Assembly: GCA_038212275.1 (NCBI GenBank)
Contig: JBBQUR010000001.1
Span: 224,001-288,000, forward strand
Direction of reading: 5' to 3'
Source of the DNA: Planctomycetota bacterium
Lineage (GTDB): Bacteria > Planctomycetota > B15-G4
DNA length: 64,000 bases
Shown here one piece after another: positions 1,196 to 25,217 of the stretch; the stretch's first letter is position 1; each line of letters opens with the position of its first letter. Under the pieces are notes generated by a model. That model was given only the letters and a program-made list of their open reading frames with translations. It was not told the DNA's origin and searched no databases. Both the position numbers and the translations under genes were made by a program.

Positions 1196-1714
1196 ATGCT
1201 TTTTGACCGCTGGCGTGCACAAAGGGCCATTGCGACCCGCTCCGCTCCCTCCGTCGTGAACGAACCGGCCGCGCCGGAGTTGTTCGAGGCGGTGGAGTCG
1301 ATGAAGGTCGCGGTGAGCTGCCTCGACTCCCTGGGCGACCCGAACTGGCACTACCGCTGGGAGGGGGACGTGCAACTCGTGGGGCTCGACGCCACGACGC
1401 GCTCCGTGACGGACGTGCGCCAGCGCCTGCTCAGGCTGGTCCACGAATGCGACCTGCGTCACATGCCGCGCGGACGCCGGCGCGTGCTGGCCGTCGTGCG
1501 CTGCGAGCCGCACGAGGACGAGGACCTCGCCGGCTGGGCTCTGCGCCTTGACCACGACGAAGGCGAGGTCGGCGCGTCCGACTGGCGCGCCGCGCGGCGC
1601 CGCATCGCCGTGCTGGCGATCGACGGCAGCGGCGCACACCTCCTCACCGGCGGCGACCGTCCCATCCGGGAGGCCGTGGCGACGTGGGCCGCCACGCGCG
1701 TCCGCACCGGCTGA
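1196..1714 (+). CDS. Hypothetical protein, first gene of the decahaem cluster
   Basis: 172-aa ORF with host-like codon usage; stop lies 2 nt before the next GTG. Confidence 0.6.
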   Translation: MLFDRWRAQRAIATRSAPSVVNEPAAPELFEAVESMKVAVSCLDSLGDPNWHYRWEGDVQLVGLDATTRSVTDVRQRLLRLVHECDLRHMPRGRRRVLAVVRCEPHEDEDLAGWALRLDHDEGEVGASDWRAARRRIAVLAIDGSGAHLLTGGDRPIREAVATWAATRVRTG

Positions 1715-1716
1715 CG

Positions 1717-2766
1717 GTGTCCCGCGCGCGCGGCAGCGACGACCCCGCGCTCGACCTGTCCGACCTGCGCCACGTGCGCGCCCTGTTCTTCGACCTGCTC
1801 GGACGCAGTCCCGACTCCGACGAGCTGGAGCTGGCGCACGAAGCGAGCGCCGACTCGCTGCTGCGCCATCTCTGTGGCCTGCGCGAGTTCTGGGAACACT
1901 GGTACGAGGACGAGCTCTACTACTTCCTGCTCATCGACAACGCGCGGCCGGCGCAGGACAGCGGCGAGGACAGCCTTCCCGCGCGGCTGCAGCGCGGCGA
2001 GCTGGGCGCTCTGGCCGCCGTGCAGAACATCGTGTCGAGTTCCGCCTTTCATCGCGCCAACCCGGGCAACGACACCTTCGTCAGCGTCGTGCTCGAGCAG
2101 CTCCTCGGCATCAACGTGCAGCAGGACACCGCGTTGCTGCAGGCCGGCAAGAAGATGTACGACGGCCAGCCGTCGGCGCTCTTCGGGGAGCGCGGCGCGA
2201 GCCAGGCGGATGTCGTCGCGATCGCGTGTCGGCAGCCCGGTTTCGCGAAGCTCTTCACCGAGAGGCAGTATCGCAGGCTCGTCGGTGTCGAACCGGAGCG
2301 GCGCGCCAGCGAGGCCTGGGTCGCGGCACTGGCCGCGCAACCGACGGGCTTTCCGGAGCTGGTGCGCAGCTGGCTGTCGTCGCCCGCCTACGCGCACCGG
2401 CTGGAAACGCTGCGCGCGAAGTCCGATCTGCAATTCATCCGCGGCCTCTACGTGGACCTGCGCGGGACGCCGCCGGCACCGGCGGAGCTGCAGCGACTGC
2501 GCGGCGCGCTCTCGGTGCTTGCCGACACGGCCCCGCTGCGCTCGGTCATCGCACGCACGTTGCTCGACGGGGCCGACCTCGACCTGCCGAAGCGCGGCGA
2601 GGTGGATCCGGACGAGTTCGTGACGGCCAGCTTCCGCCGCTTCCTCGGCCGGAGACCGTCGCCGGAGGAGCTGCAGGACTTCGTGACCGTCTATGCGCAG
2701 GAAAGTTGTCTGCCTTCCACGCTCATCGCGGCCATCGTCACGCACCCGGAATACCAGTACTATTGA
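1717..2766 (+). CDS. Helical-repeat protein, DUF1553/DUF1800/DUF4214-like partner of a DUF1501-type protein
   Basis: Repeated motif RALFFDLLGRSPDSDE / FIRGLYVDLRGTPPAPAE / FVTASFRRFLGRRPSPEE; C-terminal HPEYQYY; start codon uncertain. Confidence 0.65.
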   Translation: MSRARGSDDPALDLSDLRHVRALFFDLLGRSPDSDELELAHEASADSLLRHLCGLREFWEHWYEDELYYFLLIDNARPAQDSGEDSLPARLQRGELGALAAVQNIVSSSAFHRANPGNDTFVSVVLEQLLGINVQQDTALLQAGKKMYDGQPSALFGERGASQADVVAIACRQPGFAKLFTERQYRRLVGVEPERRASEAWVAALAAQPTGFPELVRSWLSSPAYAHRLETLRAKSDLQFIRGLYVDLRGTPPAPAELQRLRGALSVLADTAPLRSVIARTLLDGADLDLPKRGEVDPDEFVTASFRRFLGRRPSPEELQDFVTVYAQESCLPSTLIAAIVTHPEYQYY

Positions 2767-2863
2767 GGTGCGCACGCAGCCTGCCCGACGCGAGCGCGCC
2801 CTGCGCGGCGGCTCGGCCGGACGGCAGCAGCGCTGCGCCGTCGTCGCCGACAAGGAGATCGTG

Positions 2864-4114
2864 ATGAGCACTTCACGCAACGACAGCCGCGGCAGGATCC
2901 TGCCTGGCCTGGCACCGTCGACCGGCCCGCGGGCGGGCGGGTTGAGCCGGCGCGACGTGCTGAGGAGCGGGGTGATCCTCGCGGCCCTCGCCTCGCTGTC
3001 GGGCCGCGCGCGCGCCGAGTTGCTGGCGACGCTGCTGCCGTCACCCGCGCCGGGCTTCCTTGCGGGGGCGCCACGGACCCGGCGCGTGGTGCTCGTGGTG
3101 TTCGGCGGCGGCGTGCGCAGCCGCGAGACGCTGCTGTCCGACAACACGCCCAATCTGCGGCGCATCGCCGAGCAGGGCGTGACGTATCCGCTCACGCGCG
3201 TCGAGAACAACGGTCACTACGCGGCCGCACTCTCCATTTTCACCGGCGCCACCGAGAACTTCGGCATCCGCGAGAACGACCGCTCGCCGCACCCGACGCT
3301 TTTCGAGTATCTGCGCAAGGGGGGCGGGCTCTCGGCCGCGGACGTGTGGCTGTCCACCTCCGGAAGCGAGCAGGAGACCAACTATTCCTACGGCACCGAC
3401 CCGCGCTACGGCGCGGCGTACGGAGCCAACCTCATCGGCGGCGAAGGCATTTTCAATGCGGAGTTCCGCGAGCTGCTCGGCGCCTCGCGCGCACCGCCCG
3501 ACGCCGAGCGCGAGAGTCAGTTGCGCCGGCTGCGCGCGGCCGTGCGGACGCCCTTTCCGACGGAGGGCAAGGGCGGCGTCGGCAACGATCCGGAAGCCGC
3601 GGCCCGCATCGAGGCCTACATCCTCGAGGAGCTGCGCGGCGGCACTGCCGCCATCACCGGGCTGGGCAGCAACGATGCCAAGGCGCTCCGCGTCGCGCGC
3701 AATCTGCTCTCCATCTTCAAGCCACGGCTGCTCGCGGTCACGCTGCGCAACGCGGATGTCGCGCACGGTTCCTTCAACGACTACGTGAACGTCATCAAGC
3801 GCAACGACACGGAACTCGGCGCGCTCTACGACGCGATCCGTGCCGACCCGGAGCTTGCGTCGAGCACCGCGCTATTCGTGCTGCCCGAGTTCGGCCGCGA
3901 CCGCGACCTGAATGCGCGCCGGGGGCTCGACCACGGTGACGACAGCTCGGAGCTGCACCAGGTCTCGCTCGTGGCCTGGGGCCCGGACTTCCGCCAGGGC
4001 AAGGTGGTGAATCAGGAAACCCGCTCGCTGGACGTGTGCCCGACCATCGCCTCGCTCTTCGGGGTCCAGGCGAGCGGCGCGCGCGGAAGCCTGCTGCCCG
4101 GGCTCATGGCCTGA
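2864..4114 (+). CDS. Tat-exported DUF1501-like / alkaline-phosphatase-superfamily protein
   Basis: RBS AAGGAG at 2852; twin-arginine SRRDVLR plus hydrophobic stretch; VVLVVFGGG, DVAH, LPEFGRD, DHGD motifs. Confidence 0.75.
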   Translation: MSTSRNDSRGRILPGLAPSTGPRAGGLSRRDVLRSGVILAALASLSGRARAELLATLLPSPAPGFLAGAPRTRRVVLVVFGGGVRSRETLLSDNTPNLRRIAEQGVTYPLTRVENNGHYAAALSIFTGATENFGIRENDRSPHPTLFEYLRKGGGLSAADVWLSTSGSEQETNYSYGTDPRYGAAYGANLIGGEGIFNAEFRELLGASRAPPDAERESQLRRLRAAVRTPFPTEGKGGVGNDPEAAARIEAYILEELRGGTAAITGLGSNDAKALRVARNLLSIFKPRLLAVTLRNADVAHGSFNDYVNVIKRNDTELGALYDAIRADPELASSTALFVLPEFGRDRDLNARRGLDHGDDSSELHQVSLVAWGPDFRQGKVVNQETRSLDVCPTIASLFGVQASGARGSLLPGLMA

Positions 4115-4115
4115 C

Positions 4116-7100
4116 GTGCGGGCGGCGGCCCTGTGCAGCGCGATCTGCAGGCGAAGCCCGTCTGCGCCGCGCTTGCTTGCGATTCTCGCCATCGCGCTGA
4201 TCGGTCTGGCGAGCGCCGCTCCGGCACCTGGCCCGAGGGCCGTCCGTGCGCTGCCGGCGGCCGCCCAGGTCGCGCCAGCTGGTGCTCAGCTCGTGCCAGC
4301 TGGTGCTCAGGTCGCGCAAGCTGGAGCTCAGCTCGTGCAGGCCGGTGCGCCGGTTGCGTCGGCGCCGAATCGCGCGGGAGGTGTCGGTGCGCCGGATGCC
4401 GGCTGCCGCGATTGCCACGCGGGCATCGAGGAGATGCACCCGTGGAAGGCGTTGAGCTGCGTGGATTGCCACGGCGGTGACGGCGCGGCCGTGGATGCGG
4501 CGCGCGCGCACGTCGCGCCGCGAGCCGGCTGGCCCATCGATGAGCGCGTCCTGCCGCTGGGCTTCGATCCCGCGGCACTGCGCTTCCGCAATCCGGCCGA
4601 CCTGCGGATCGTGAAGGACACCTGCGGCCAGTGCCATGCCCGCGAAGTGGATCGCGTGAGCACGAGCCTGCACGCCACGACCGCAGGCCATCTCAACGAC
4701 GGCCTCTACGAGAACGGGTTGCTGTCGAAGAAGCAGAGCAAGTACGGCGTGTTCGACAGCAACCGCGCCGGAGACGACGCGGGGCCGCACAGCCTGCAGC
4801 ATCTCGACGCGATCGAACGCCTTCGCGTCCCGTTGACGCCGGTGACGCTGGCGGATCATTTCGCGGACCTGCCGCGCAAGGCGTGCATGCAGTGCCACCT
4901 GTGGTCGTCCGGTCTGGCGGTCGAGGGGCGGCTCGGGCAGGACGGTCTTTATCGCGGGGCCGGCTGCGCCGCCTGTCACGTCGTGTACGCAGAGGACGGT
5001 CGCAGTCAGAGCGCTGACGCGCGCGCCGAGCACGCCAGCCCCGGACACCCGCTGCGGCACCAGATGACGGCTGCCCCGCCGACCTCCACCTGCACGAGCT
5101 GCCACGTCGGCGACGCGGCCATCGGCAACGGCTTCCGCGGCATGGCGCAGCTCTACCCGCAGCAGCCCGCCGGCCCGGACATCCCCGACACGACCGACCA
5201 CCTCATCGCGGGGCAGTTCTTCATCAAGGATCCCGTGCTCACGCCGCCCGACCTGCACGCCGCGGCCGGCATGGATTGCGTGGACTGCCACACGGCGCGC
5301 GATGCCATGGGCGACGGCAGCATGCCGGGCGCGATGGAGCACGCCGTCGAGATCGAGTGCAGCGATTGTCACGGCACGTTCACGTCCTACGCGACCGGCA
5401 CGACCTCGCACGGGCACAAGCTCACCAACCTGGAGCAGCGCGGCGATCTCTTCGTGCTGATGGACAAGGCCGACGGCCACACCCGCCGCGTGAAGCAGGT
5501 GAAGGACGTGCTCGATCCCGACCACCCCGACTGGAACCCGCGCGCCGCCGCCGCGATGACCTCGGAGCACGGCGGGCTCGAGTGCTACGCCTGCCACGCC
5601 GGCTGGAACACGAACTTCTTCGGCTTCCACTTCGACCGCAATCTTGGCTTCACGCAGCTGGATGCGATCACCGGGGTGCGCACGCCCGGGCGTGTCACGA
5701 CGCAGGAGCGTGTCTTCGCCTCGTTGCGGCAATTCTCGCTGGGCGTCAATCCCGAGGGCGACGTCGCACCATACGTCGTGGGCTTCTCGAGCATGGGCAC
5801 GGTGCACGGCAAGAACGGCGAACTGCTGCTCGACCAGGCGCTGCCGGCCACCGCCGCCGGTCTGTCGGGCATGACGATGGTTCACCACCAGCTGCACACC
5901 ACGCAGCCGGTGGCGCGCAGCTGCGTGGAGTGCCACCGCAGCCCGGCGACGTGGGGACTCGGGAGCGGTGACCAGTCGACGTCGTCCTTCGCGCTGTCGC
6001 GCGGACTGCTCGTCGTGGCGGGCGAGCGCGGCCTCGACACGCTGCTGCTGGACCGCGAGAACGCGCAGAACACGCTGTATCTCGCGCGCCTGCCGCTCGG
6101 AGGAGCCAGGAAGGTGGTGCTCGACAGCGACCCGATCACGGGGCGCGCGAGCACGGCCTTCGTCGTGATCGAGCACGCGGGCGTCTGCATCGTGGACCTC
6201 CGCAACCCGGCGCTGCCGGAGGTCATCGGCTTCGCGGCGGCGGGCGACGCGCGCGACTGCGCCCTGGCGGGCGACCTGCTCGTCATCGCGAACGGAAGCG
6301 GCGGACTGCGCCTCGTGGACATCTCCAACCGGCGCCTGCCGGTGCTGGTCTCGGATCTCGTGACCATGGAAGCGCGCGGGCTGGCCGTGCAGTGGCCGCG
6401 CGTGCTCGTGGCCGACGGTGCCGGCGGCCTGCTCATCGCGGACATCTCGAATCCGCGCCAGCCGACGGTGGCGGGCCAGGTGCGCCTCGCGCCGCCGGAT
6501 GCGCAGGACGACGGCGACGCGCGCGCCGTCGCGGCCAGCTTCCAGTACGGCAGGCCGCGCGGCCAGGCGCGGCGCACGCTGGCGCGCATGATCGCGGTGG
6601 TCGCGAACGGGCGCTACGGCTACTCGGTGGTGGACGTCACGGAACCCGCAGCCGCACGCTCGCTGACGGGCATCTCGACGGGCTACGCCAACGAGCTGCT
6701 GCCGGTGGACGTGACGCTCGGCATGCGCATCGACCTCGGAGACAGCAGCGGCCAGCGCCCGACGGTGGAGCGCGACGTCGCGACGCTGCTGCTCGTGGCG
6801 GCCGACGGCGAGCGCGCCGTCACGGCGCTGCTGGACGTGACCGATCCGGGGAAGCCCGTGTTTCTTTCGCGCGTGAACATCGGCAGGAACACGGGGCTGC
6901 CGCCGGCGAGTGGGCTCGCGCTGCTGCGCAGCTTCAATCCGCCCGTGCTGGTGACGCAGGTGCTCGTCGCCGGCGAGGGCGGCCTGCAATTCCAGGACGT
7001 GACGCGTCTCGACGAGGGCAGGAACGGCCCGCTGCTCCCGGGCGTGGAGGGCGCGCGCGACGTCGCGGTGGAGGCCTTCGCCTTCGACCGCATGCTGGAC

Positions 7101-8018
7101 GAAACCGGCCGGCAGCTGAAGGACATCAGTCACGACGGTGCGCGCTTCCTCACCACGGCCGAGATCCACCGCATGCTCACCGTGCCCGGCGAGCGGCTCG
7201 GCACCATCCTCGACGGTGGCAAGGTGCGCGCGGGCCTCGCCGAGGAATATGCGGACCGCGCACTGGCGGGTGGGGATGCCGCCGCGAGTCTCAACGTGCG
7301 GCGCCGCGATCGCGAGCAGGACGAGGCGATGGCGCTGCGGCTCGCCGGAGGCTTTCGCATCGCGCCCGAGGAGGACCTCGCGCGCCTCGTGCGGCACATG
7401 TCGGCACAGGACTTCGATGACAACCGGGACGGCTCCCTGTCGCGCGGCGAACTCGAGCGCCTCGTCTTCGCCGCGCTCGACGCCAACGGCAGCGGGACGC
7501 TCGATCCGCTGGAGTGGCCCCGGCATCCGGGCACCGACCCCGGGCACCTCGACAAGAACCACGATGGCGTGCTCTCGCGCTCCGAAATGGACCTCGGTCG
7601 TGACGTGACGCAGTACTTCGATCTCGATCGCGACGGCCGCGTCCAGTTTGCCGAGTGGCCCTGGGCGGTGAACGCCCGGCCGCTGCCCACGCTCTTCGCG
7701 GCCTCGGTCGCCAGCCTGCGCAAGGTGCTGGCGCGGCCCGGCTTCGACCAGCGCCGTCCGGAGCTCAACACGGTGTTCTACGGCGAACGCAGCACGCGCG
7801 AGCTGAAAGACGCGGAGCTGCAGCAGGCCATCGACCGCGCACGCGGCAATCCGCTCATCGACATCCGCGGCGACGGGGCGCCACCCGGTTTCATCGAGCG
7901 CTACGACCTGGACGGCGATGGGGCCGTGGACCTCGTCGAGTTTCCGGAGCTGCCGCGCATCGCGGACCGCTGCGACAGGAACGGCGACGGGCGCATCGAT
8001 CGGCGCGACCGGCCCTGA
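4116..8018 (+). CDS. Secreted decahaem cytochrome c fused to LVIVD-type beta-propeller repeats and EF-hands
   Basis: Signal peptide; 10 CxxCH (CRDCH, CVDCH, CGQCH, CMQCH, CAACH, CTSCH, CVDCH, CSDCH, CYACH, CVECH); GLRLVDISN, GLLIADISNP, YSVVDVTEP, LLDVTDP repeats; six DxD/NxDG loops. Confidence 0.9.
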   Translation: MRAAALCSAICRRSPSAPRLLAILAIALIGLASAAPAPGPRAVRALPAAAQVAPAGAQLVPAGAQVAQAGAQLVQAGAPVASAPNRAGGVGAPDAGCRDCHAGIEEMHPWKALSCVDCHGGDGAAVDAARAHVAPRAGWPIDERVLPLGFDPAALRFRNPADLRIVKDTCGQCHAREVDRVSTSLHATTAGHLNDGLYENGLLSKKQSKYGVFDSNRAGDDAGPHSLQHLDAIERLRVPLTPVTLADHFADLPRKACMQCHLWSSGLAVEGRLGQDGLYRGAGCAACHVVYAEDGRSQSADARAEHASPGHPLRHQMTAAPPTSTCTSCHVGDAAIGNGFRGMAQLYPQQPAGPDIPDTTDHLIAGQFFIKDPVLTPPDLHAAAGMDCVDCHTARDAMGDGSMPGAMEHAVEIECSDCHGTFTSYATGTTSHGHKLTNLEQRGDLFVLMDKADGHTRRVKQVKDVLDPDHPDWNPRAAAAMTSEHGGLECYACHAGWNTNFFGFHFDRNLGFTQLDAITGVRTPGRVTTQERVFASLRQFSLGVNPEGDVAPYVVGFSSMGTVHGKNGELLLDQALPATAAGLSGMTMVHHQLHTTQPVARSCVECHRSPATWGLGSGDQSTSSFALSRGLLVVAGERGLDTLLLDRENAQNTLYLARLPLGGARKVVLDSDPITGRASTAFVVIEHAGVCIVDLRNPALPEVIGFAAAGDARDCALAGDLLVIANGSGGLRLVDISNRRLPVLVSDLVTMEARGLAVQWPRVLVADGAGGLLIADISNPRQPTVAGQVRLAPPDAQDDGDARAVAASFQYGRPRGQARRTLARMIAVVANGRYGYSVVDVTEPAAARSLTGISTGYANELLPVDVTLGMRIDLGDSSGQRPTVERDVATLLLVAADGERAVTALLDVTDPGKPVFLSRVNIGRNTGLPPASGLALLRSFNPPVLVTQVLVAGEGGLQFQDVTRLDEGRNGPLLPGVEGARDVAVEAFAFDRMLDETGRQLKDISHDGARFLTTAEIHRMLTVPGERLGTILDGGKVRAGLAEEYADRALAGGDAAASLNVRRRDREQDEAMALRLAGGFRIAPEEDLARLVRHMSAQDFDDNRDGSLSRGELERLVFAALDANGSGTLDPLEWPRHPGTDPGHLDKNHDGVLSRSEMDLGRDVTQYFDLDRDGRVQFAEWPWAVNARPLPTLFAASVASLRKVLARPGFDQRRPELNTVFYGERSTRELKDAELQQAIDRARGNPLIDIRGDGAPPGFIERYDLDGDGAVDLVEFPELPRIADRCDRNGDGRIDRRDRP
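4263..4346 (+). repeat. 4 x 21-nt imperfect tandem repeat encoding AQ(V/L)(A/V)(P/Q)AG after the signal peptide
   Basis: gcccaggtcgcgccagctggt / gctcagctcgtgccagctggt / gctcaggtcgcgcaagctgga / gctcagctcgtgcaggccggt. Confidence 0.85.
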
Positions 8019-8267
8019 ACTCCGGGCATTGACCGCACGTGCCGGCGGCCGAGGTCCGCCTGCACGTCAGCTGCGATCCACCTGCAGCACGTGACCCCGG
8101 TCGCCGGCTCGGCGGACGCGCTGCGTGCTGCCATGTGGTTGCACGACCGTCGCGACCGTGGCGGCAGCGCGCAAGGGCTGCGTGCTGCACACTCTGGGAA
8201 GGGCGGATGGACGGGGTGGTTCGTGCGGCTCCGAAGCGGCCCGTCGGTACCGGGAAGGGTGAAGACT

Positions 8268-8813
8268 GTGATTCAACGCACGCTCGATCGCGCGCCGAGG
8301 CACCGGACGTGGGGCACGGCGCTGCTGCTGCTCCAGGTGGCGCTGTTCGCACTGACCGGTTGCGACGAACACGCACCCGACCTGATCGCCACCTTGAAGG
8401 GGCGCTGCGAAGGGCGCTGGGTCGTGGTGGACGCCGATCGCGCGCGCCTCCCGCTCTGCGATGTGCCGCGAGACCGGTTGGCCATCGAGCTCGCGTCGCG
8501 CGCGCCGCTGGGCGACACGCTCGTGCCCGGCGAGACCTATGCGATCGGCACGCTCGCCTGGGGTGATCGCGCGAGCGCCTTCGCGCTGGACTACCCGCTG
8601 GGCTCGCGAGACCTGTGCTGCGCCTATGCCCGCTACGTGAGCCGCGAGGTGGCTCCGTTCGGTCGTCTCGACGGCGCCGGCTTCAACCTGCTGCTGCTCA
8701 CCGCCGGAGGCCGCGACGACGACCTGCTGTGCGTGGACTTCCAGCGCACGGCTCCCGTCTCCGGCGGCTTGGAGCACATGCTGCGCTTCGAGCGCGATCC
8801 GGCCGGCGACTGA
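8268..8813 (+). CDS. Hypothetical lipoprotein; frame stays open past the TGA to 9140
   Basis: Hydrophobic stretch with lipobox ALTG-C; start uncertain (GTG 8259 or 8268). Confidence 0.55.
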   Translation: MIQRTLDRAPRHRTWGTALLLLQVALFALTGCDEHAPDLIATLKGRCEGRWVVVDADRARLPLCDVPRDRLAIELASRAPLGDTLVPGETYAIGTLAWGDRASAFALDYPLGSRDLCCAYARYVSREVAPFGRLDGAGFNLLLLTAGGRDDDLLCVDFQRTAPVSGGLEHMLRFERDPAGD

Positions 8814-9307: not shown

Positions 9308-10372
9308 TTGTCCGCCACGCCCTCCCATGCCGACGCAGACCGCAGCGGCGGGAGCACCGCAGGCATCGGCGGCATCGGCGGTAGCAGCGGTAGCAGCGGT
9401 AGCAGCGGTAGCAGCGGCGGCCCGGCCCTCGCCGAGCTGCGCGCGGGCGGGGTGACGGGGCCGAAGCCCGACTGGCTCAAGATCAGGCCGCCCGGCGGCG
9501 AGCGCTACACGCGCCTCAAGGGCCAGCTCCGCGAGCGCGGCCTGCACACCGTCTGCGAGGAAGCGCGCTGCCCCAACGTGGAGGAATGCTGGGGCGGCGG
9601 CACGGCGACGCTCATGCTCATGGGCGACACTTGCACGCGCGGCTGCTCCTTCTGTGCGGTGAAGACCGCGCGAGCGCCCGCGCCGCTGGACGCCGACGAG
9701 CCGGCCAAGTCCGCACAGAGCGTCGCGCTCATGGAGCTGGACTACGTCGTGCTCACCTCGGTGGACCGCGACGACCTGCCCGACGGCGGCGCTGCGCACT
9801 TCGCGGCCTCCGTGCGCGCCATTCGCGAGCGCAATCCGGCCACGCTCATCGAGGTGCTCATCCCGGACTTCCAGGGCGACGAGCGCGCGCTGGCGACGCT
9901 GGTCGCGTCGCGGCCCGATGTCGTCGCGCAGAACCTGGAGACGGTCGAGCGCCTCACGCACCCGGTGCGCGACCCGCGCGCCGGCTACCGCCAGACGCTC
10001 GAGCTGCTGGCCCGCGTGAAGCGCCTCGCTGCCAGCATGCAGACCGCCGACGCCGCACGCCACGCGCCGATGCTCACCAAGAGCAGCCTCATGCTGGGCC
10101 TCGGCGAGCGCGACGACGAGGTGCGCGCCGCCATGGCCGACCTGCGAGCCTCGGGCGTGGACTTCCTCACCTTCGGCCAGTACCTGCGGCCGACGCCGCG
10201 ACATCTCCCCGTGCAGCGCTACGTGCCGCCCGAGGAGTTTTCGCGCTGGCAGGCCGAGGGCGAAGCGATGGGCTTCCGCTACGTCGCGAGCGGTCCGCTC
10301 GTGCGCAGCAGCTACCGCGCCGGAGAGTTCGCGATCCGCGCAGTGTTCGAACAGCAACGGAGAACCGGATGA
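9308..10372 (+). CDS. lipA: Lipoyl synthase
   Basis: [52 protein letters not shown]-terminal (GSS)4 repeat; start uncertain. Confidence 0.97.
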
Positions 10373-11481
10373 GCACCACCGACATGTTGCAGATCCTCAC
10401 CGAGAGCGGCCGCGCCGCGCCGGGCACGGACGCCGGCCTGAGCCGGATCCAGCTCCTCGACCTTTACGAGCACATGCTGCGCACGCGCCTCATGGACGAG
10501 CGCATGCTCAACCTGCAGCGCCAGGGCCGCATCGGTTTCTATGTGCCGAGCACCGGCGAGGAGGCCTGCCAGATCGGCGCCGGCTCCGCGATCGGCAAGC
10601 GCGACTGGATCTTCCCCAGCTATCGCATGCCCGGCACGCTCATGATGTGCGGCGCCCGCATCACCGACATGGTGGCCAACTGCTTCGGCAACGAGGCGGA
10701 CCTGTGCAAGGGGCGCCAGATGCCGGTGCACTACGCGATGGCGGAGGCGCACATCGTGTCCATCTCGAGCCCGATCGGCACGCACCTCGTGCAGGCGACG
10801 GGCACCGCGATGGCGCAGAAGCTGAAGCACGACAAGGGCATCTCGTGGGCCTTCTTCGGCGACGGCGGCACCAGCAGCAACGACTTCCACTCGGGCCTGA
10901 ACTTCGCGGGCGTCGCGAAGGCGCCGGTGGTCTTCGTCTGCACCAACAACCAGTGGGCCATCTCGGTGCCGCTCTCCAAGCAGACGGCCAGCGAGACCAT
11001 CGCGTGCAAGGCCGAGGCCTACGGCATGCCCGGCGTACGCGTGGACGGCAACGACGTGCTGGCCGTGCAGCAGGCCTGCCAGCAGGCCGCCGAGCGCGCG
11101 CGGCGCGGCGACGGCCCGACGCTGCTCGAGCTGATGACCTACCGCCGCGGCCCGCACAGCTCCAGCGACGACCCGACGCGCTACCGCGGCAACGAGGCCG
11201 ACGACTGGATCAAGCGCGACCCGATCGTGCGCTATCGCAAATACCTCGAGCTGGCCGACCTGTGGAGCGACGCACAGGAGAAGGACCTGACCGAGCGCCT
11301 GAAGACGCAGATCAACGAGGCCGTCTCCACTGCGGAGAAGGCGCCGCAGCCCGCGCTCGACTCGCTGTTCTCCGATGTCTATGCCAAGGTGCCCGCGCAC
11401 CTGCGAGAGCAGTACGAAGACCTCATCCGCACCGAGGGCACCGGCCACGAGGCCGACCCCGACGCGGCCTTCCCGCTCTGA
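10369..11481 (+). CDS. 2-oxoacid (pyruvate/branched-chain) dehydrogenase E1 alpha, copy 1
   Basis: [20 protein letters not shown] motif GDGGTS...[22 protein letters not shown] overlap with lipA. Confidence 0.95.
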
Positions 11482-11614
11482 CGACTCACCGCAACGCGCA
11501 TCGCCCACCGACGCACGAACCAGCAGACACGCACGCTCACCAACTCGCACGACGGAAGCGCAACCTGCCGCTCCGCCGCCACCCCACGAACGACTGCAAC
11601 GAAACGAGAGATCG

Positions 11615-12589
11615 ATGGCTGAAATGACCCTGGTCCAGGCCGTGAACGAAGCCCTGCGCGCCGAGATGCGCGCCAACGACGACGTCGTCATCCTCGGCGA
11701 GGACGTCGGCATCAACGGCGGCGTGTTTCGCTGCACCGCCGACCTCGCGAAGGAGTTCGGCGAGGAGCGCGTGATCGACACGCCGTTGTCCGAGTCGGGC
11801 ATCATCGGCGCCGCCATCGGCATGGCGCTGTACGGCCTGCGGCCCGTGCCGGAGATCCAGTTCAGCGACTTCATCTGGCCGGCCTTCGACCAGATCACCT
11901 CCGAGCTGGCCAAGATGCGCTACCGCAGCGGCGGCCAGTTCACGTGCCCGCTCGTGATCCGCACGCCGTATGGCGGCGGCATCCGCGGCGGCCACTACCA
12001 CAGCCAGAGCCCCGAGGCCTACTTCACGCAGACGCCTGGCCTCGTCGTCGTGACGCCCAGCGACCCGTACGACGCCAAGGGCCTGCTGCGCGCGGCGATC
12101 CAGTGCGATGACCCGGTCATCTTCCTGGAGCCCAAGCGCATCTACCGCGCGCCCAAGATGGACGTGCCGGACGGCGACTACATCGTGGAGATCGGCAAGG
12201 CCGCGGTGCGCCGCGAGGGCAGCGACTTCACCATCACCTGCTACGGCGCGATGGTGGGTGTGGCCCTGGAGGCCTGCAGGAAGGCGGCCGAGCGCGGCTG
12301 GGAGGGCGAGGTGCTCGACCTGCGCACGCTGCTGCCACTGGACGAACCGGCGCTCATCGAGAGCGTCACCAAGACGGGCCGCCTCGTCACGCTGCAGGAG
12401 GCGCCGAAGTTCTGCGGCTTCTCCAGCGAACTCTCCGCGATCGTCGCCGAGAAGTGCATCGACGTGCTCGAGGCGCCGGTGAAGCGCGTCGCGGGTTTCG
12501 ACACGCCGTTCCCGTACACGCTCGAGCACGTGTACATGCCGCATGCCGACCGCGTGATGCACGCGATCGAAGCGGTGATGACCTACTGA
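11615..12589 (+). CDS. 2-oxoacid dehydrogenase E1 beta
   Basis: GEDVGINGGVFR, DTPLSESGI, EIQFSDF, GGHYHSQSPE, DLRTLLPLD. Confidence 0.96.
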   Translation: MAEMTLVQAVNEALRAEMRANDDVVILGEDVGINGGVFRCTADLAKEFGEERVIDTPLSESGIIGAAIGMALYGLRPVPEIQFSDFIWPAFDQITSELAKMRYRSGGQFTCPLVIRTPYGGGIRGGHYHSQSPEAYFTQTPGLVVVTPSDPYDAKGLLRAAIQCDDPVIFLEPKRIYRAPKMDVPDGDYIVEIGKAAVRREGSDFTITCYGAMVGVALEACRKAAERGWEGEVLDLRTLLPLDEPALIESVTKTGRLVTLQEAPKFCGFSSELSAIVAEKCIDVLEAPVKRVAGFDTPFPYTLEHVYMPHADRVMHAIEAVMTY

Positions 12590-12680
12590 AACCTTGCACG
12601 CGCCCGACGTCGTGGCGCACCAGGCAATCCACTTCACAGCATGAGATGCGGCACCGGAGGCCGCGCGGGAGTTTCAAGAC

Positions 12681-14765
12681 ATGGGCAAGCGGGTCGAGTT
12701 CAAGTTGCCGGACATCGGCGAAGGCGTCGCCGAGGGCGAAGTCACCAGCTGGAAGGTCAAGGCCGGCGACGTTTTGAAGGAAGACCAGGTCATGGTCGAG
12801 GTCATGACCGACAAGGCGACCGTCGAGATCGGCTCGCCCGTGAACGGCACCGTGCTCGAGATCCGTGTGGCCGAGGGCCAGGCGGTGCCGGTGGGCGCGA
12901 TCATCATCGTGCTCGAGGAAGGCGCCACCGCGGCGGCTGCTCCTGCTGCGGCGCCGAAGCCGGCCGCTGCGCAGGCCGCACCGACCTCCGCGAAGCCCGC
13001 GGCACCGCAGGCTCCGCCGTCCGCCCCGAAGCCTGCGATGTCGCAGGCCGCAGCGCACCCGGTCGCGCCGCCCGCAGCGTCCACGCCCGCCGCCTCGCGA
13101 CCCGCGCCCGCCGCGGCGTCGTCGACCGCGAGGCCTGCTCCGTCGCCCGCAGCACCGGCCGTGACGAAGTCCGCCGCGGGCGGCGCGCGCGAGGAGATCA
13201 ACTTCGCGCTGCCCGACATCGGCGAGGGTGTCGCGGAGGGCGAGGTCACACGCTGGATGGTGAAGCCCGGCGACAAGGTGCAGGAAGATCAGCCCATCGT
13301 CGAGGTGATGACCGACAAGGCCACCGTCGAGATCGGCTCGCCCGTGGACGGCGAGGTCCTGCAACTGCTGGTGAAGGCGGGCGAGACCGTGCCGGTGGGA
13401 GCGATCCTGCTCGTGCTCGGCGCAGCTCCCGGCGTCGGCAAGCACGTCCCCGTGCCGCATGGCGGACACGCCGCCGCCGCGAAGGCCGCGCCTGCCGCGC
13501 CGGCTGCGCCTGCCGCGCCTGCCGCGCAGCTGAACTTCGAGGACGAGTCCGCGGGTGAGGACTCCGCCGAACTGGTCGGCGCCGGCGTTGCGGCGTCTCC
13601 CGTTGCGCTGTCCGACAGCGGCCTGCCCGACCGGGGCGACGGCAGCCGCCGCGTCCGCGCCGCGCCGGCCACGCGCCGGTTCGCCCGCGAGGCGGGGCTC
13701 GATGTCGCGTCACTGAACGGCAGCGGGCCCGACGGCCGCGTCCTGATGGGCGACGTGCGCGCGGCTCTCGCCGGCGCCGCTCGTCCGGCGACGACGCGGG
13801 CTCCGGGCGCGGCGCAGCCCGCACCGCGCACGGCCGCACAGCCTGCGGCACGCACCACGGCGCCTTCGGCTGCGGCACCTGCGGCTGCGTCACCGGCGGC
13901 TGCGGCGCGCACGGCTCCGAGCCAGGCAGCTCCGTCGCGTGCGGCCGCGCCGGCCTCCGCACCCGCCTCCGCGCCGGCCGCGTCGCCGGCCCGCGCGCCG
14001 GCTGCCGCTGCGCCAGTCGCCGCCGCGGCCTCCGTGGCTGCGCCGCGGCCGCATGTGCTCGCAGGCGACGAGCGCGTCCCGCTGCGAGGCCTGCGCAAGC
14101 GCATCGCTGCGCAGATGCGGCTGTCCAAGCAGACCGCGGCGCACTTCACCTACGTCGAGGAAATCGACGTCACGGAGCTGGTGAAGCTGCGGGGGGCGGC
14201 CAAGGCGCGCGCGGCGGCGGCCGGCGTGAAGCTCACCTACATGCCGTTCATCATCAAGGCGACCTGCGTCGCGCTGCGCGAATTCCCGCTGCTCAATGCC
14301 TCGCTCGACGAGGCCGCGGGCGAGCTGGTCATGCACCACAACCACAACCTCGGCATCGCGGTGGACACGCCCAACGGCCTCATCGTGCCGGTCGTGCGCA
14401 ACGCGGACCGCAAGTCCATGACGGACCTCGCGCGCGAGATGACCGAGCTGGCCGATCGCGCGCGCGCCGGCAAGACGAAGCCGGACGACATCGGCGGCGG
14501 AACCTTCACGATCACGAACGCCGGCAACATCGGCGGCCTGCTCGCGACGCCGATCATCAACGTGCCCGAGGTCGCGATCATGGGCGTGCACGCCATCCGC
14601 CGTCGCCCGTGGGTGGTGGCCGAGGAGATCGTGATCCGCGACGTCATGCTGCTTTCGCTGTCGCTCGATCACCGCGTCGTGGACGGCGCCGTCGGCGCGT
14701 ACTTCATGAACCGCGTGAAGGAGCTGCTCGAGAATCCAGGCCTCATGCTGTTCGAGCCGGCGTGA
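12681..14765 (+). CDS. Dihydrolipoamide acyltransferase E2 with two lipoyl domains and long Ala/Pro linkers
   Basis: Two LPDIGEGVAEGE...EVMTDKATVEI domains, binding domain AAPATRRFARE...GSGPDGRV, catalytic DHRVVDGA. Confidence 0.96.
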   Translation: MGKRVEFKLPDIGEGVAEGEVTSWKVKAGDVLKEDQVMVEVMTDKATVEIGSPVNGTVLEIRVAEGQAVPVGAIIIVLEEGATAAAAPAAAPKPAAAQAAPTSAKPAAPQAPPSAPKPAMSQAAAHPVAPPAASTPAASRPAPAAASSTARPAPSPAAPAVTKSAAGGAREEINFALPDIGEGVAEGEVTRWMVKPGDKVQEDQPIVEVMTDKATVEIGSPVDGEVLQLLVKAGETVPVGAILLVLGAAPGVGKHVPVPHGGHAAAAKAAPAAPAAPAAPAAQLNFEDESAGEDSAELVGAGVAASPVALSDSGLPDRGDGSRRVRAAPATRRFAREAGLDVASLNGSGPDGRVLMGDVRAALAGAARPATTRAPGAAQPAPRTAAQPAARTTAPSAAAPAAASPAAAARTAPSQAAPSRAAAPASAPASAPAASPARAPAAAAPVAAAASVAAPRPHVLAGDERVPLRGLRKRIAAQMRLSKQTAAHFTYVEEIDVTELVKLRGAAKARAAAAGVKLTYMPFIIKATCVALREFPLLNASLDEAAGELVMHHNHNLGIAVDTPNGLIVPVVRNADRKSMTDLAREMTELADRARAGKTKPDDIGGGTFTITNAGNIGGLLATPIINVPEVAIMGVHAIRRRPWVVAEEIVIRDVMLLSLSLDHRVVDGAVGAYFMNRVKELLENPGLMLFEPA

Positions 14766-14769
14766 CGTC

Positions 14770-15879
14770 ATGACCGGCGCACCCGCACCGCTGCAGATCC
14801 TGTCGCCCAACGGCAGCGTGGACACCGCGCTGCTGCCGTCGCTGCCGCCCGACCGGATGGTGGAGCTGTACCGGCAGATGGTCATGGTGCGCATCATGGA
14901 CACGCGCATGCTGGCGCTGCAGCGCCAGGGGCGCATCGGCTTCTACGGCACGTGCAAGGGCCAGGAGGCCGCGACGGTGGGCAGCGGTGCGGCCGTCGCC
15001 GCGCGCGACTGGGTCTATCCGGCACTGCGCGAGGGCGCGGTGCTGCTCATGCGCGGTTTCCCGCTGGACCGCTACGTCGCGCAGCTCATGGGCAATGGCC
15101 ACGACGAGGCGCACGGGCGGCAGATGCCCTGCCACTTCGGGAGCCGCAAGTACCGCTTCGTCACGCTGAGCTCCGTCATCGGCACGCAGATCCCGCAGGC
15201 GATGGGCACCGCGTGGGCCGCGAAGATCCGCGGCGACGATGTCGTGACGCTGGCCTACCTCGGCGACGGCGCGACGAGCAGCACGGACTTCCATTGCGCG
15301 CTCACCTTCGCGGCCGTGCACAAGTTGCCGGTCGTCTTCCTCTGCCAGAACAATCAATTCGCGATCAGCGTGCCGTTCGCGAAGCAGACGGCGAGCGCCG
15401 GCATCGCGGTGAAGGCCGTCGCCTACGGCATGCCCGGCGTCGCGGTGGACGGCAACGACGTGCTCGCGGTGTACAGCGCCACGCGCGAGGCCGTGGACCG
15501 CGCGCGCAGCGGCGAGGGCCCGACCCTCATCGAGGCCATCACGTATCGCCTCGAAGGCCACAGCAGCAGCGACGACCCGACGCGCTACCGCGACGAGTCC
15601 GTCACGAAGTCCTGGGCCCAGCGCGATCCGATCGCGCGCTTTCGCCGCTTCCTCGAGCTGGAAGGCCTGGTCTCCGTCGCGCTGGACGAGCAGATCCAGG
15701 CCGAGCTCAAGTCCTCCATCGATGCCGCGATCAGCCAGGCCGAAGCCGGCCCCGCGCCCGACGTCGAGACGCTGTTCACCGACGTCTACGCGGAGATGCC
15801 GGCGCACATCGCCGAGCAGCGCGACGAAGTGCTGCGCGAGCAGGGCGGCGGAAGCAACTCGGGAGCATTCCCGCTCTGA
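14770..15879 (+). CDS. 2-oxoacid dehydrogenase E1 alpha, copy 2
   Basis: [23 protein letters not shown]...[19 protein letters not shown]. Confidence 0.95.
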   Translation: MTGAPAPLQILSPNGSVDTALLPSLPPDRMVELYRQMVMVRIMDTRMLALQRQGRIGFYGTCKGQEAATVGSGAAVAARDWVYPALREGAVLLMRGFPLDRYVAQLMGNGHDEAHGRQMPCHFGSRKYRFVTLSSVIGTQIPQAMGTAWAAKIRGDDVVTLAYLGDGATSSTDFHCALTFAAVHKLPVVFLCQNNQFAISVPFAKQTASAGIAVKAVAYGMPGVAVDGNDVLAVYSATREAVDRARSGEGPTLIEAITYRLEGHSSSDDPTRYRDESVTKSWAQRDPIARFRRFLELEGLVSVALDEQIQAELKSSIDAAISQAEAGPAPDVETLFTDVYAEMPAHIAEQRDEVLREQGGGSNSGAFPL

Positions 15880-19435: not shown

Positions 19436-19546
19436 TGCGCAGGAGGCCGCCGGAGACGAGTCCCGCCCCGCGGCTCCGGAATGCGCTGCGCGCTGACGGC
19501 AACAGCGCGTAAAGTCACACCTCTTCGCACGCGAGAACCTGCCGCA

Positions 19547-22183
19547 GTGACCCTGCCCGTCGGCTCCAGCCTCTCCTGCTACGAGATCCTCGGTCCGCTG
19601 GGCGCGGGGGCGATGGGCGAGGTGTATCGCGCCCGGGACACGCGGCTCGAGCGCGAGGTTGCGATCAAGGTGCTGCCCGAGCACTTCGCCAGCGACGGCG
19701 AACGATTGCGGCGCTTCGAGCGCGAGGCGAAGACGCTCGCGTCGCTCAACCATCCGAACGTCGCGCAGATCTTCGGCGTGGACCAGGTCGGCGACACGTG
19801 CTTCCTCGTGCTCGAGCTGGTGCCGGGCGAGTCGCTCGAGGAGCGCCTCAAGCGCGGGCCGCTGCCGCTCGACGAAGCGCTCGACGCGTGCCGGCAGATC
19901 GCGGAGGGACTCGAGGCTGCGCACGAAGCCGGCGTGATCCATCGCGACCTCAAGCCCGCGAACATCCGCGTCACGCCCGACGGCAAGGTCAAGGTGCTCG
20001 ACTTCGGCCTGGCCAAGTCCGTGATCGTCGGCGAGCAGCACTCCTCCGACAGCGTGCTCTCGACCGAGCACGGCCGGCTTCTCGGCACGCCGACCTACAT
20101 GGTGCCGGAGCAGGCGCGCGGCCGGCACATCGACCGGCGCGTGGACATCTGGGCCTTCGGCTGCGTGCTCTACGAATGCCTGACGAGCCAGCGCGCCTTC
20201 ACGGGCGAGACGCTCACCGACGTGCTCGGCGCCGTGCTTCACACCACGCCCGACCTGGCGCGGCTCCCGGCAGGCACGCCGCGCTCCGTGCGCGAACTCC
20301 TCGCGCGCTGCCTCGAAAAGGATCCGCACAATCGATTGCGCGACATCGGAGAAGCGCGCCTCCTGCTCGGTGATCGCGCCGCGCTCGTCGCGGCGGAGGC
20401 GGCGGAGGCGTCGGCAGCGGTTGCGTCGGCAGCGGCGGCCGCTGCTGCGGCGTCCGACTCCGCGGCGCGTGGCGGCCGCGCGCCGTGGCTGCCGTGGACA
20501 CTCGCCGGTGCCACCGTGCTGGTGGCAGTCTTCTTCGGGCTGCGCGGCGGACGCCAGCCGCCGCTCCCGCTGCCGGACGCCACTCCGACGCTGACCGCCG
20601 CGACGCCGTCGCCGCGCACGTTCACCCCCCGAACCTTCGGGCCGCAGTTCGTGTGCACTGCCCGCTTTCTGCCGCACGCGCAGGGCATCGTCTACAGCTC
20701 GGCGCTCACGGGAAACCGGCCCGAGATGTTTCTGCTCCAGACGGGCGCGATGGCGCCGCAGCGCATCGCACCCGCGGGCACGGTGCTGCTCTCGATCTCG
20801 TCGAGCGGCGAGCTGGCCGTGCTCACCGACGCGACCTACTTCAACCACCGCCTGTTCGTCGGCACGCTGGCGCGCATGACGATCGACGGTGCGCCGCGCG
20901 CCCTCATCGACGAAGTGCGCGACGCCGATTGGGGCCGCGACGGCGAGCTGGCCGTCGTCCGCAGGCTGGACGGGCTCGATCAGCTTGAGTACCCGTCGGG
21001 CAAGGCGCTTTACACGACGACCGGCTACGTGAGCGAGCCGCGCGTCTCGCCCGACGGCACGCGTGTGGCCTTTCTCGATCACACCGACTGGCTCGACGAC
21101 CGGGGCTGGGTCAAGGTGGTCGACCGCGCCGGCAACGTCACGACGCTGAGCGACGAGTGCTCCGCGCTCGAAGGGCTCACGTGGGAGCCGGGCGGCGCGC
21201 GGCTGCTGTTCTCGGGAGCGCGCAGCGGTGGCTCGGCCCGCATGTCGCCGCTCTCCACGTCGGCGTCCGGCCCGGACGTGCGCGACGAGTTCGACACGCC
21301 CGGCGAGATGTTCCTGCTGGATGCCGCCGACGACGGGCGCCTGCTCGCCATCGAGGCGGACACGTTCTACGGCGTCGGGGTGCGACTGCCCGGGCGGCCC
21401 GCGGATCTCGACGTGAGCTGGCTGGACCAGTCGTGGGGCGGGCAGCTCTCGCCGGACGGGACTTCGGTCGTCTTCTCGAACGGCCACGGCGGGCCGAACT
21501 ACACCGTCGTCACGCGCAGGCTCGATGGCTCACCGATCACGACGCTCGGCGAGGGTGATGCGCGGGGCTACTCGCCCGACGGACGCTGGGTTGTCGCGCA
21601 GCTCTTCACGCCCTGCGGTCTCGTGCTCTATCCGACGGGCGCCGGCGCCGCGCGGCCGCTCGAGCGCGGGCCGCTCGAGACCATCACGGGCGCCGCGTGG
21701 TTCCCGGACGGGAAGAGCCTGCTGGTGACCGGTGCGGAGAAGGGCCGGCGGCTGCGCTGCTACCGGCAGCCCATCGATGGCGGGCCGCCCGAAGCGGTCA
21801 CGCCCGAGGGCTTCGCCGGAACCCTTTCACCGCTCGGAGACCGGATCATCTGCCGCGACGCAAAGACTGGCTGGGTCTTCTGTGCCCTCGACGGCGGCGC
21901 GGCCGTGCCGGTGCCCGGCCTCGATGCGCTCGATGACGTCGAGGCGTGGACTCCCGCAGGCGACGGCGTGTACGTGCAGCGATTCGGGGCCATTCCCGCA
22001 CGACTCGATCATGTGGACCTCGCGACCGGGACGCGCACCGCGGCCTTCGTGCTCGGGCCGGAGAGCCAGGCCGGGCTCGTGCGCGTCGTGTCCGCCGAGC
22101 GCGTGCTCGATCCGCAGCGCGCCTACGCCTACGGCTACTATCGCCGCCTGTCGCAGCTTTTCGTGGTGGAAGGCGGACGATGA
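19547..22183 (+). CDS. Hanks-type Ser/Thr kinase with TM helix and WD40/PD40-like propeller
   Basis: [40 protein letters not shown] repeats in the C-terminal half. Confidence 0.93.
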
Positions 22184-22205
22184 ACGCGACCAGGGAGCAT
22201 GCACC

Positions 22206-25154: not shown

Positions 25155-25217
25155 GGCGGCGGGCCGGGCCGTGCAAGTCTGTCGCTGCGGATTCGAGCGA
25201 GGAGCAGGCGGCGCGGC

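Follow-up and report, generated by a model that had tools for sequence, protein, structure and literature searches.

A decahaem c-type cytochrome of Planctomycetota with an LVIVD propeller and an EF-hand module: architecture, operon and possible role

Multihaem cytochromes drive much of the microbial redox chemistry of metals, nitrogen, and sulfur, and the accessory domains of these proteins usually tell where the electrons are going. This report describes a gene for such a cytochrome found in 64,000 nucleotides of DNA from a Planctomycetota bacterium (assembly GCA_038212275.1, contig JBBQUR010000001.1, positions 224,001 to 288,000 of the forward strand), a stretch referred to below as the window. 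The gene (4116..8018 in window coordinates; all features lie on the + strand unless stated otherwise) is an open frame of 1300 amino acids with a GTG start. Its product combines, in a single chain, an N-terminal domain with ten CxxCH haem-binding motifs, a seven-bladed LVIVD propeller, and a C-terminal module of six EF-hand loops. This three-part layout had been proposed in an earlier reading of the same DNA (the original prediction); it is confirmed here and is conserved in relatives. The Pfam families that exceed their cut-offs in the protein are EF-hand_5, EF-hand_1, EF-hand_6, LVIVD, Cytochrome_C7, and Cytochrom_c3_2. The guanine-plus-cytosine (GC) content at the three codon positions (GC1 0.74, GC2 0.52, GC3 0.89) resembles the values for the other + strand genes in the window, which is 70% GC, and the gene is present as a single copy in its genome (4.65 Mb, 40 contigs, 91% complete).

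The protein starts with a signal-peptide-like N-terminus (residues 1-35, 4116..4220) that comprises a charged start, a LLAILAIALIGLA core, and ASA-AP, and which was judged by eye, without a predictor, to be a Sec signal peptide. In public data the same protein (P0002) is called as 1227 amino acids long, with a start 73 residues further in; this start would remove the signal peptide and is therefore probably miscalled. An Ala/Gln/Pro-rich low-complexity linker follows (residues 36-93, 4221..4394), which is not conserved according to the alignment consensus. The sequence contains neither a lipobox nor a C-terminal sorting signal. For the maturation of c-type cytochromes, the genome carries a match to PF01578 above the cut-off, in a 1068-amino-acid frame on contig C27. 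Taken with the N-terminus read as a signal peptide, the protein is a c-type cytochrome with predicted export.

The haem domain (residues 94-619, 4395..5972) matches the NCBIfam profile of ExtM with an E-value of 1.4e-57. Its ten CxxCH motifs (nucleotides 4404-5936) start at C97, C115, C170, C257, C284, C326, C388, C415, C490, and C603 and span residues 97-607, in agreement with the earlier statement that they fall within roughly the first 610 residues. They take up 20 of the 25 cysteines of the protein. In 2000 shuffles of the protein the motif occurred 0.0145 times on average and once at most, as against the ten observed, and the six frames of the whole window contain 12 such motifs, 10 of them in the cytochrome frame. 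No CxxCK is found in the protein, nor any CxxCH beyond residue 607. All ten motifs are invariant across 44 aligned relatives, and so are the spare histidines that the original prediction had put forward as possible distal ligands (H186/H192, H311/H315, H381, and H591/H594). Together with H108, H132, H485, and H505, a total of 11 non-motif histidines of the domain are invariant, while H248 is kept in at least 90% of the relatives. Eleven invariant and one near-invariant spare histidines should therefore suffice as distal ligands for ten six-coordinate haems. The ten haems are probably low-spin and bis-His coordinated, and the number of conserved spare histidines suggests an electron wire more than a catalytic haem.

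A model of residues 85-1060, computed with AlphaFold2 from 113 sequences, reached a predicted local distance difference test (pLDDT) of 90.9 and a predicted template modelling score (pTM) of 0.92. As this pTM covers both parts, the haem domain and the propeller are modelled as one body. In the model, residues 94-619 are rich in loops and helices, as multihaem domains are, except that a conserved, beta-rich insert lies between haem motifs 9 and 10 (residues 500-590, 5613..5885; strands at model residues 416-506); its invariant residues include F504, H505, F506, R508, D516, and E531. The propeller (residues 628-989, 5997..7082) consists of 27 strands (model residues 542-905). Its fold superposes on the seven-bladed structure 4qrj (Z 31.3, root-mean-square deviation (rmsd) 2.5, 304 aligned), on the seven-bladed YVTN protein 1l0q (Z 31.2, rmsd 2.2, 280 aligned), and on the seven-bladed designed protein 7bid (Z 29.3, 273 of 286 residues aligned). 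Pfam LVIVD (PF08309) scores 48 bits with a cut-off of 20.2, so that score and modelled fold both bear out the propeller claimed earlier. Structure prediction followed by Foldseek had been suggested as a check of the whole architecture, and this succeeded for the propeller fold only: the Foldseek and VIA lists for the large model are filled by propellers, and the haem part was barely probed. When the haem domain was folded alone, from a 46-sequence alignment, the model was poor (pLDDT 63.5); with it Foldseek returned nothing below E 0.46, and the wide VIA structure search gave a single match, OTR 1sp3, which is within noise (Z 3.3, rmsd 5.5, 222 aligned). At the profile level, the haem domain matches NrfA (6v0a, E 3.6e-6) and an octahaem nitrite reductase (E 0.018) of the Protein Data Bank (PDB), both over short stretches.

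The propeller itself says little about function. Invariant residues occupy 15 of its 404 profile positions and are mostly Gly, Ala, and Asp of the repeat, which makes a catalytic pocket there less plausible. A search with the propeller profile in a library of 1.84 billion representatives returned 50,025 matches with giant LVIVD repeat proteins on top, whereas the family's own members appeared there as single-stretch matches and gave no functional lead. Because the likeness to this huge LVIVD set is limited to the repeat motif, the fold is uninformative in this respect. The most conserved segment outside the haem domain (residues 986-1021, VEAFAFDR...LKDISHDGAR...E, 7071..7178) lies in a short helical part after the propeller, with E986, D991, K1002, D1003, S1005, H1006, R1010, and E1016 invariant. 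It is also kept in the shorter relatives described below, whose matches end near residue 1024.

The EF-hand module (residues 1099-1298, 7410..8009) contains six 12-residue loops, as the original prediction had counted, starting at residues 1101, 1122, 1146, 1169, 1264, and 1287. Three lines of evidence bear this out: the Pfam families (EF-hand_5, 57.3 bits with a cut-off of 25.9; EF-hand_1, 49.1 with 25.4; EF-hand_6, 41.2 with 25), a shuffle control (mean 0.05 and maximum 2 loops in 2000 shuffles of the protein), and the liganding positions. Positions 1, 3, 5, and 12 are D, D/N, D/S/N, and E in five of the loops, the sixth having Asp instead of Glu at position 12, and they are conserved among the long forms of the family alignment (A1). 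The proposal that the protein binds a cation is a fair deduction from such canonical, conserved loops, and the cation would most simply be Ca2+. The profile of the EF-hand family matches calmodulins in the PDB (E 1e-8 to 1e-6) and lanmodulin no better (6mi5, E 4.2e-7). A proline at loop position 2 is the mark of lanmodulin; the six loops have D, A, K, L, L, and R there, and lanthanide-specific EF-hands were rejected.

The module is joined to the propeller part by a variable linker (residues 1045-1098, 7248..7409), and this is the spot where relatives split into two genes: the short forms end near query residue 1024, and separate EF-hand proteins match from about residue 1099. Residues 1090-1300 were mapped onto 80 related loci, those kept from the 206 stretches of species-representative genomes that encode a relative of the cytochrome. 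The EF region is fused in frame in 31 of them and forms a separate open reading frame (ORF) just downstream in 26; nothing was found in 18 loci with room for it and in two without room, and in three the contig ends within the cytochrome gene. Comparison at the protein level added a downstream EF-hand ORF in five of the loci where nothing had been found (L027, L033, L045, L069, and L078), and two borderline loci (L061 and L080) look fused by length. The separate proteins match EF-hand families at E 1e-35 to 1e-40, and all 16 that were inspected have a signal-peptide-like N-terminus and 7-14 EF loops. In a FastTree phylogeny of 71 haem-plus-propeller sequences (10 of 81 loci were left out, their gene being incomplete or split by the gene caller), at least three changes are needed to account for the fused state, which appears in clades of 10 (including the window), 18, and 3 sequences and in one single row. 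By this pattern the EF-hand part is, in genomic terms, a detachable subunit, fused here and separately encoded in many relatives, and its repeated fusion or splitting argues that it works together with the cytochrome.

Some genomes hold more than one such locus. Two cytochrome loci were found in each of four metagenome-assembled genomes (MAGs): two of them (L017/L026 and L052/L047) combine a locus fused to the EF-hand part with a split one, in the third (L048/L058) both are split, and in the fourth (L018/L023) one is fused and the other has no EF region found. Genomes with two cytochrome matches also occur in the phylum-wide sample described below.

A misassembled fusion is rejected, since the window sequence from 2600 to 8100 recurs with 0 differences in a Logan contig of 16,280 bases. 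This contig comes from run X1, possibly the source sample; runs X2-X4 gave small pieces only. The fusion is upheld, in addition to this independent contig, by the 31 fused relatives from other assemblies. Among the 80 kept loci, every relative whose record names a phylum is a Planctomycetota MAG. A word-indexed protein search, in which 8000 candidates were scored, gave 951 matches at E <= 0.001 that fall into two length classes, one of about 1230-1320 amino acids with EF-hand Pfam domains and one of about 950-1020 without them; they are publicly named 'hypothetical', 'LVIVD repeat', 'EF-hand', or 'multiheme c-type cytochrome'. All the named organisms among these matches are Planctomycetota, bar one: a partial protein of 879 amino acids and 55% identity (P0045) is labelled Pseudohongiellaceae, a gammaproteobacterial family, which may have come about by transfer or by an error in binning. 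The haem-domain profile was also run against 400 Planctomycetota genomes, evenly sampled. Matches at E <= 1e-30 were present in 75 genomes, 59 of them strong (better than 1e-130) and concentrated in certain families (9/10, 6/8, 3/4, and 8/12 genomes). Record titles and run labels place the relatives in sediment, activated sludge, groundwater, and lakes, and no RNA dataset is among the runs listed as carrying the sequence. Leads from the ESM Atlas point beyond the phylum, with LVIVD-plus-cytochrome clusters in Verrucomicrobiota and Pseudomonadota at scores of 0.80-0.87, below the 0.9 line; they also list Acidobacteriota, and relatives of the DUF1501-like protein introduced below in several phyla (scores 0.95-0.97).

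At two other loci, L085 (8347-12288, - strand) and L086 (8112-12098, - strand), a branch of the ExtM-like haem domain that has diverged (E about 1e-95 to its profile) forms the C-terminus of proteins of 1313 and 1328 amino acids. The N-terminal halves of these proteins consist of He_PIG, Big_9, and cadherin-like Ig domains; they have neither LVIVD nor EF-hand regions, and no DUF1800-like or DUF1501-like neighbours.

Two genes precede the cytochrome on the same strand. The nearer one (2864..4114, ATG at 2864) encodes a 416-amino-acid protein with an invariant RR at residues 29-30, and its relatives match Pfam TAT_signal and, weakly, DUF1501. The family profile matches the sulfatase 9bes_B (E 1.3e-8) and phosphodiesterases. 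The invariant twin-arginine and these profile matches therefore mark it as a member of the alkaline-phosphatase superfamily exported by twin-arginine translocation (Tat). In a weak N-terminal alignment, its invariant H118 is paired with the non-standard residue X of the sulfatase, which we take to be the formylglycine nucleophile, and D298, H301, E342, D346, D356, H357, and D359 are invariant as well. This DUF1501-like protein has a single strong copy in the genome. The stop codon of its gene ends 1 base before the cytochrome GTG, and the median gap in relatives is 4.5 bases. The other gene (1684..2766) encodes, as called, 360 amino acids of a helical-repeat protein that is like DUF1800, DUF1549, and DUF4214 (weak Pfam matches, below the cut-off). 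Many of its relatives have a signal-peptide-like N-terminus; the window copy as called has none, and a different true start or a frameshift is possible. It overlaps by 31 bases a 172-amino-acid ORF (1196-1714) that is conserved in close relatives only.

The gene order is widely kept. A crude gene caller was applied to the 69 loci with at least 2.6 kb of upstream DNA, and genes on the same strand within 4.5 kb upstream of the cytochrome were counted, so that the resulting figures are lower bounds: the DUF1501-like gene was found in 54/69, the DUF1800-like gene in 51/69, and both in 41/69. In the sample of 400 genomes, 59 have a strong match to the cytochrome and 56 to the DUF1501-like protein, with 55 having both, that is 55 of the 60 holding either, in counts where related genomes are not independent. 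Four genomes have the cytochrome only (all partial or weaker matches) and one, 76% complete, has the partner only. The pairing of the two proteins is thus nearly complete. A complex prediction, consisting of one pairing (DUF1501-like residues 45-416 with cytochrome residues 480-1050, leaving the N-terminal haems and the DUF1800-like protein outside it), scored 0.01 with a mark of 0.32, which speaks neither for nor against binding; that the partners bind is presumed solely on the grounds of gene order and co-occurrence. In families f27 and f14, genomes that lack the cytochrome have DUF1501-like relatives of a second tier (E 1e-47 to 1e-91), and some of these relatives lie inside frames of 800-1020 amino acids and may be fused to something else.

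The genes on the other side are conserved more narrowly. Lipoyl synthase and 2-oxoacid dehydrogenase subunits lie downstream of the cytochrome and are common to close relatives only; in the window, 9308-15879 encodes lipoyl synthase, E1 alpha, E1 beta, and E2 (with two lipoyl domains) of a 2-oxoacid dehydrogenase, and a second E1 alpha. Directly 3' of the cytochrome, a 240-amino-acid ORF (8091-8813) matches neither Pfam nor NCBIfam, and no relative among the 80 loci passed a 5-member cluster threshold; it may be lineage-specific or no gene. Further on, 19436-26378 contains large + strand frames (916, 1142, and 408 codons) whose GC3 is like that of genes.

How these parts might work together can be proposed only tentatively. 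In the reading that we favour, although we hold it at somewhat less than even confidence, the cytochrome serves as electron wire and docking subunit in a redox module of four parts located outside the cytoplasm, the other parts being the DUF1800-like, Tat-exported, and EF-hand proteins. The ten haems would form the wire, in one rigid body with the propeller, and would carry electrons between a metal site of the partner, or a site at the propeller, and the other periplasmic cytochromes of the cell; a periplasmic location and the direction of electron flow are both presumed here. The partners would be the Tat-exported metalloprotein of alkaline-phosphatase fold (DUF1501-like) and the DUF1800/DUF1549-like helical protein, and the EF-hand part, loaded with Ca2+, would give the assembly stability or an anchor. 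Catalysis may reside in the Tat-exported partner and not in the propeller. A parallel is offered by the PSCyt-DUF1549/DUF1553 genes of PVC (Planctomycetes-Verrucomicrobia-Chlamydiae) bacteria, described below.

Several observations weigh against this proposal. AlphaFold2 places no haems, and both their ligation and the identity of the haem nearest the propeller are deduced from conservation alone. The operon has no membrane partner for oxidising quinol. The Pfam DUF1501 match of the partner family is weak (one relative, E 4.7e-5), and a canonical DUF1501 identity of the partner was rejected, as Pfam DUF1501 finds other genes in the genome and misses this one; an hhalign comparison of the partner with the canonical DUF1501 of the genome gave E 0.016 and covered the C-terminal EFGR...DH motif only. 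The N-terminal sulfatase-like alignment that brings H118 opposite residue X is likewise weak (8.8 bits). Finally, the Ig- and cadherin-fused relatives of the haem domain and the reputation of LVIVD as a surface repeat also fit a role at the cell surface.

Such a role is the strongest of the alternatives, although a doubtful one: the protein would be an electron conduit of the cell surface or matrix, exchanging electrons with insoluble or polymeric partners (for example minerals, humics, or other cells), with the propeller and the Ca2+-loaded EF part serving to bind or anchor it. The definition of the LVIVD repeat comes from cell-surface proteins (PMC2447325). The EF regions of relatives match Dockerin_1 weakly, and the divergent haem-domain branch is fused to domains (He_PIG, Big_9, cadherin-like Ig) that are typical of surface adhesins. 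An MtrC-type cytochrome gene is present elsewhere in the genome, and MtrC-type domains occur in 21/59 genomes with the cytochrome compared with 59/341 without it. This enrichment is however confounded by kinship, 38/59 of the cytochrome-bearing genomes have no MtrC-type match, and of the 10 other genomes in the window's family, nine have the cytochrome and one an MtrC-type domain; the coupling to an MtrC-type conduit is not tight. The lack of a lipobox and of a sorting signal also speaks against the surface, as does the tightly coupled partner, since Tat substrates usually stay in the periplasm.

The wire-and-docking reading can be carried further, to a claim that we consider rather unlikely as it stands, namely that the operon encodes a new type of periplasmic metallo-oxidoreductase in which the Tat protein is catalytic, the cytochrome wires it to the respiratory chain, and the EF subunit holds the assembly together. 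In the Tat protein, an invariant histidine occupies the position of the sulfatase nucleophile, and invariant Asp, His, and Glu residues surround the usual metal site. If the claim were true, the DUF1501 branch of the alkaline-phosphatase superfamily would perform redox chemistry, not hydrolysis, and the operon would be a tractable model for the PSCyt-DUF1549/DUF1553 and DUF1501 gene pairs of Planctomycetota and Verrucomicrobiota.

An unlikely alternative is that the protein is a redox enzyme in itself, in which the propeller, segment 986-1021, and haem 10 would form the active or substrate site and the other nine haems would feed it. Cytochrome cd1 nitrite reductase, quinohaemoprotein dehydrogenases, and hydrazine synthase are built on the same plan. 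About 20 residues separate haem motif 10 (C603) from the first blade that follows it, and the motif is flanked by the invariant residues H591, H594, R601, and R608, to which the invariant segment behind the propeller can be added. The propeller profile matches hydrazine synthase beta weakly (E 0.018; Z 26.1, rmsd 2.3, 268 aligned), but generic propellers reach Z 31. As for the haem domain, its weak profile matches to NrfA and octahaem nitrite reductase concern catalytic multihaem enzymes, while the structural match to OTR was obtained with a poor model and stays within noise. The few invariant positions of the propeller are mostly structural residues of the repeat, no cluster of conserved Cys or His that could bind a metal or cofactor is seen in its blades, and the count of conserved spare histidines suits ten six-coordinate haems. 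Lastly, a Ca2+-gated or Ca2+-sensing carrier, in which Ca2+ or another cation on the EF part would switch the contacts or potentials of the wire, is highly improbable despite the six canonical loops with conserved liganding positions and the profile matches to calmodulins and lanmodulin, given that Ca2+ levels outside the cytoplasm will as a rule keep EF-hands occupied, a point in favour of a structural role, that no loop has a proline at position 2, and that about 12 of the 80 related loci have no EF-hand gene next to the cytochrome.

Whichever role applies, the family is common in uncultured Planctomycetota, with its strong matches in 59/400 genomes and in most genomes of several families. 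The coupling to the Tat protein and the repeated fusion and splitting of the EF part give a defined four-protein unit for expression, which may also help to make sense of the PSCyt/DUF1501 gene pairs in PVC bacteria; these pairs have long been without explanation.

Among characterised cytochrome families no full-length match was found: the best hit in a PDB sequence search with the full protein has E 0.048, and ExtM falls below its cut-off. No description of the ten-haem/LVIVD/EF-hand architecture was met in the literature searched (titles, abstracts, and passages, with supplements outside), nor one of EF-hands combined with a multihaem cytochrome. Both results agree with the original prediction, whose author knew of no characterised protein with this layout. 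The nearest relative of the haem domain is ExtM of Geobacter sulfurreducens (GSU2935, NCBIfam NF040943), also an exported multihaem c-type cytochrome. The domain is colinear with profile positions 19-303 and 338-513 of 599 and scores 195.4 bits, below the equivalog cut-off of 800 (138 and 57 bits, in two colinear pieces, in the genome search), so that on profile evidence it is a distant relative. ExtM has 12 haems and neither propeller nor EF-hands, whereas the window protein has ten haems and both. In the part of the source consulted, ExtM lies in the extHIJKLMNOPQS cluster with the porin ExtI, ExtKL, ExtN, the Rieske protein ExtO, and the cytochrome b ExtP, and is given no biochemical role (PMC5877670). 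None of the genes of the ext cluster is present in the window operon.

Other systems resemble single parts. The decahaem cytochromes MtrC and OmcA share with the window protein ten haems, beta-rich parts without haem, and possible long-range electron transfer, but the scores are below the cut-offs (Pfam MtrC-MtrF_II-IV, PF22113, 16.8 bits versus 30; TIGR03507, 17.4 versus 209.3). The haloalkylphosphorus hydrolase Sb-PTE (5hrm, 5ioj) has the blade motif (5hrm, profile E 6.1e-6; Foldseek E 5.5e-8) and the seven-bladed fold, and the likeness is limited to the repeat motif. Calmodulin-type proteins have the same canonical paired 12-residue loops; unlike them, the EF module is exported and is fused to, or encoded beside, a multihaem cytochrome, its separate forms having 7-14 loops. 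With regard to the operon, DUF1501 is, as we take it, one of the families that adjoin the PSCyt-DUF1549/DUF1553 genes. In the PSCyt-DUF1549-DUF1553 sets of Planctomycetota and Verrucomicrobiota, a c-type cytochrome element is encoded together with a DUF1549/DUF1800-type and a DUF1501-type protein, as in the window. Here, in contrast to those sets, the cytochrome is a separate decahaem-propeller protein and not a single-haem domain, and the DUF1501-like protein belongs to a distinct family. In PVC bacteria, the PSCyt-DUF1549/DUF1553 genes adjoin conserved families of unknown function (PMC5615132).

The combination of haems and propeller has precedents. Cytochrome cd1 and the quinohaemoproteins are fusions of multihaem-propeller type, and so are the non-anammox homologues of hydrazine synthase beta-gamma. 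Those of clade I have eight N-terminal haem motifs, a seven-bladed propeller, and a dihaem peroxidase/MauG-like tail (PMC12758564). On that description they share with the window protein a multihaem block and a seven-bladed propeller in one exported chain, and differ in the tail, since the window protein has no CxxCH after residue 607 and carries EF-hands in place of a dihaem domain; its propeller, moreover, is no closer to that of hydrazine synthase beta (Z 26.1) than to generic propellers (Z 31). Fusions of multihaem domains and propellers are already known in kind, and the present family differs from them in its ExtM-like ten-haem block, its LVIVD propeller, its EF-hand subunit, and its operon.

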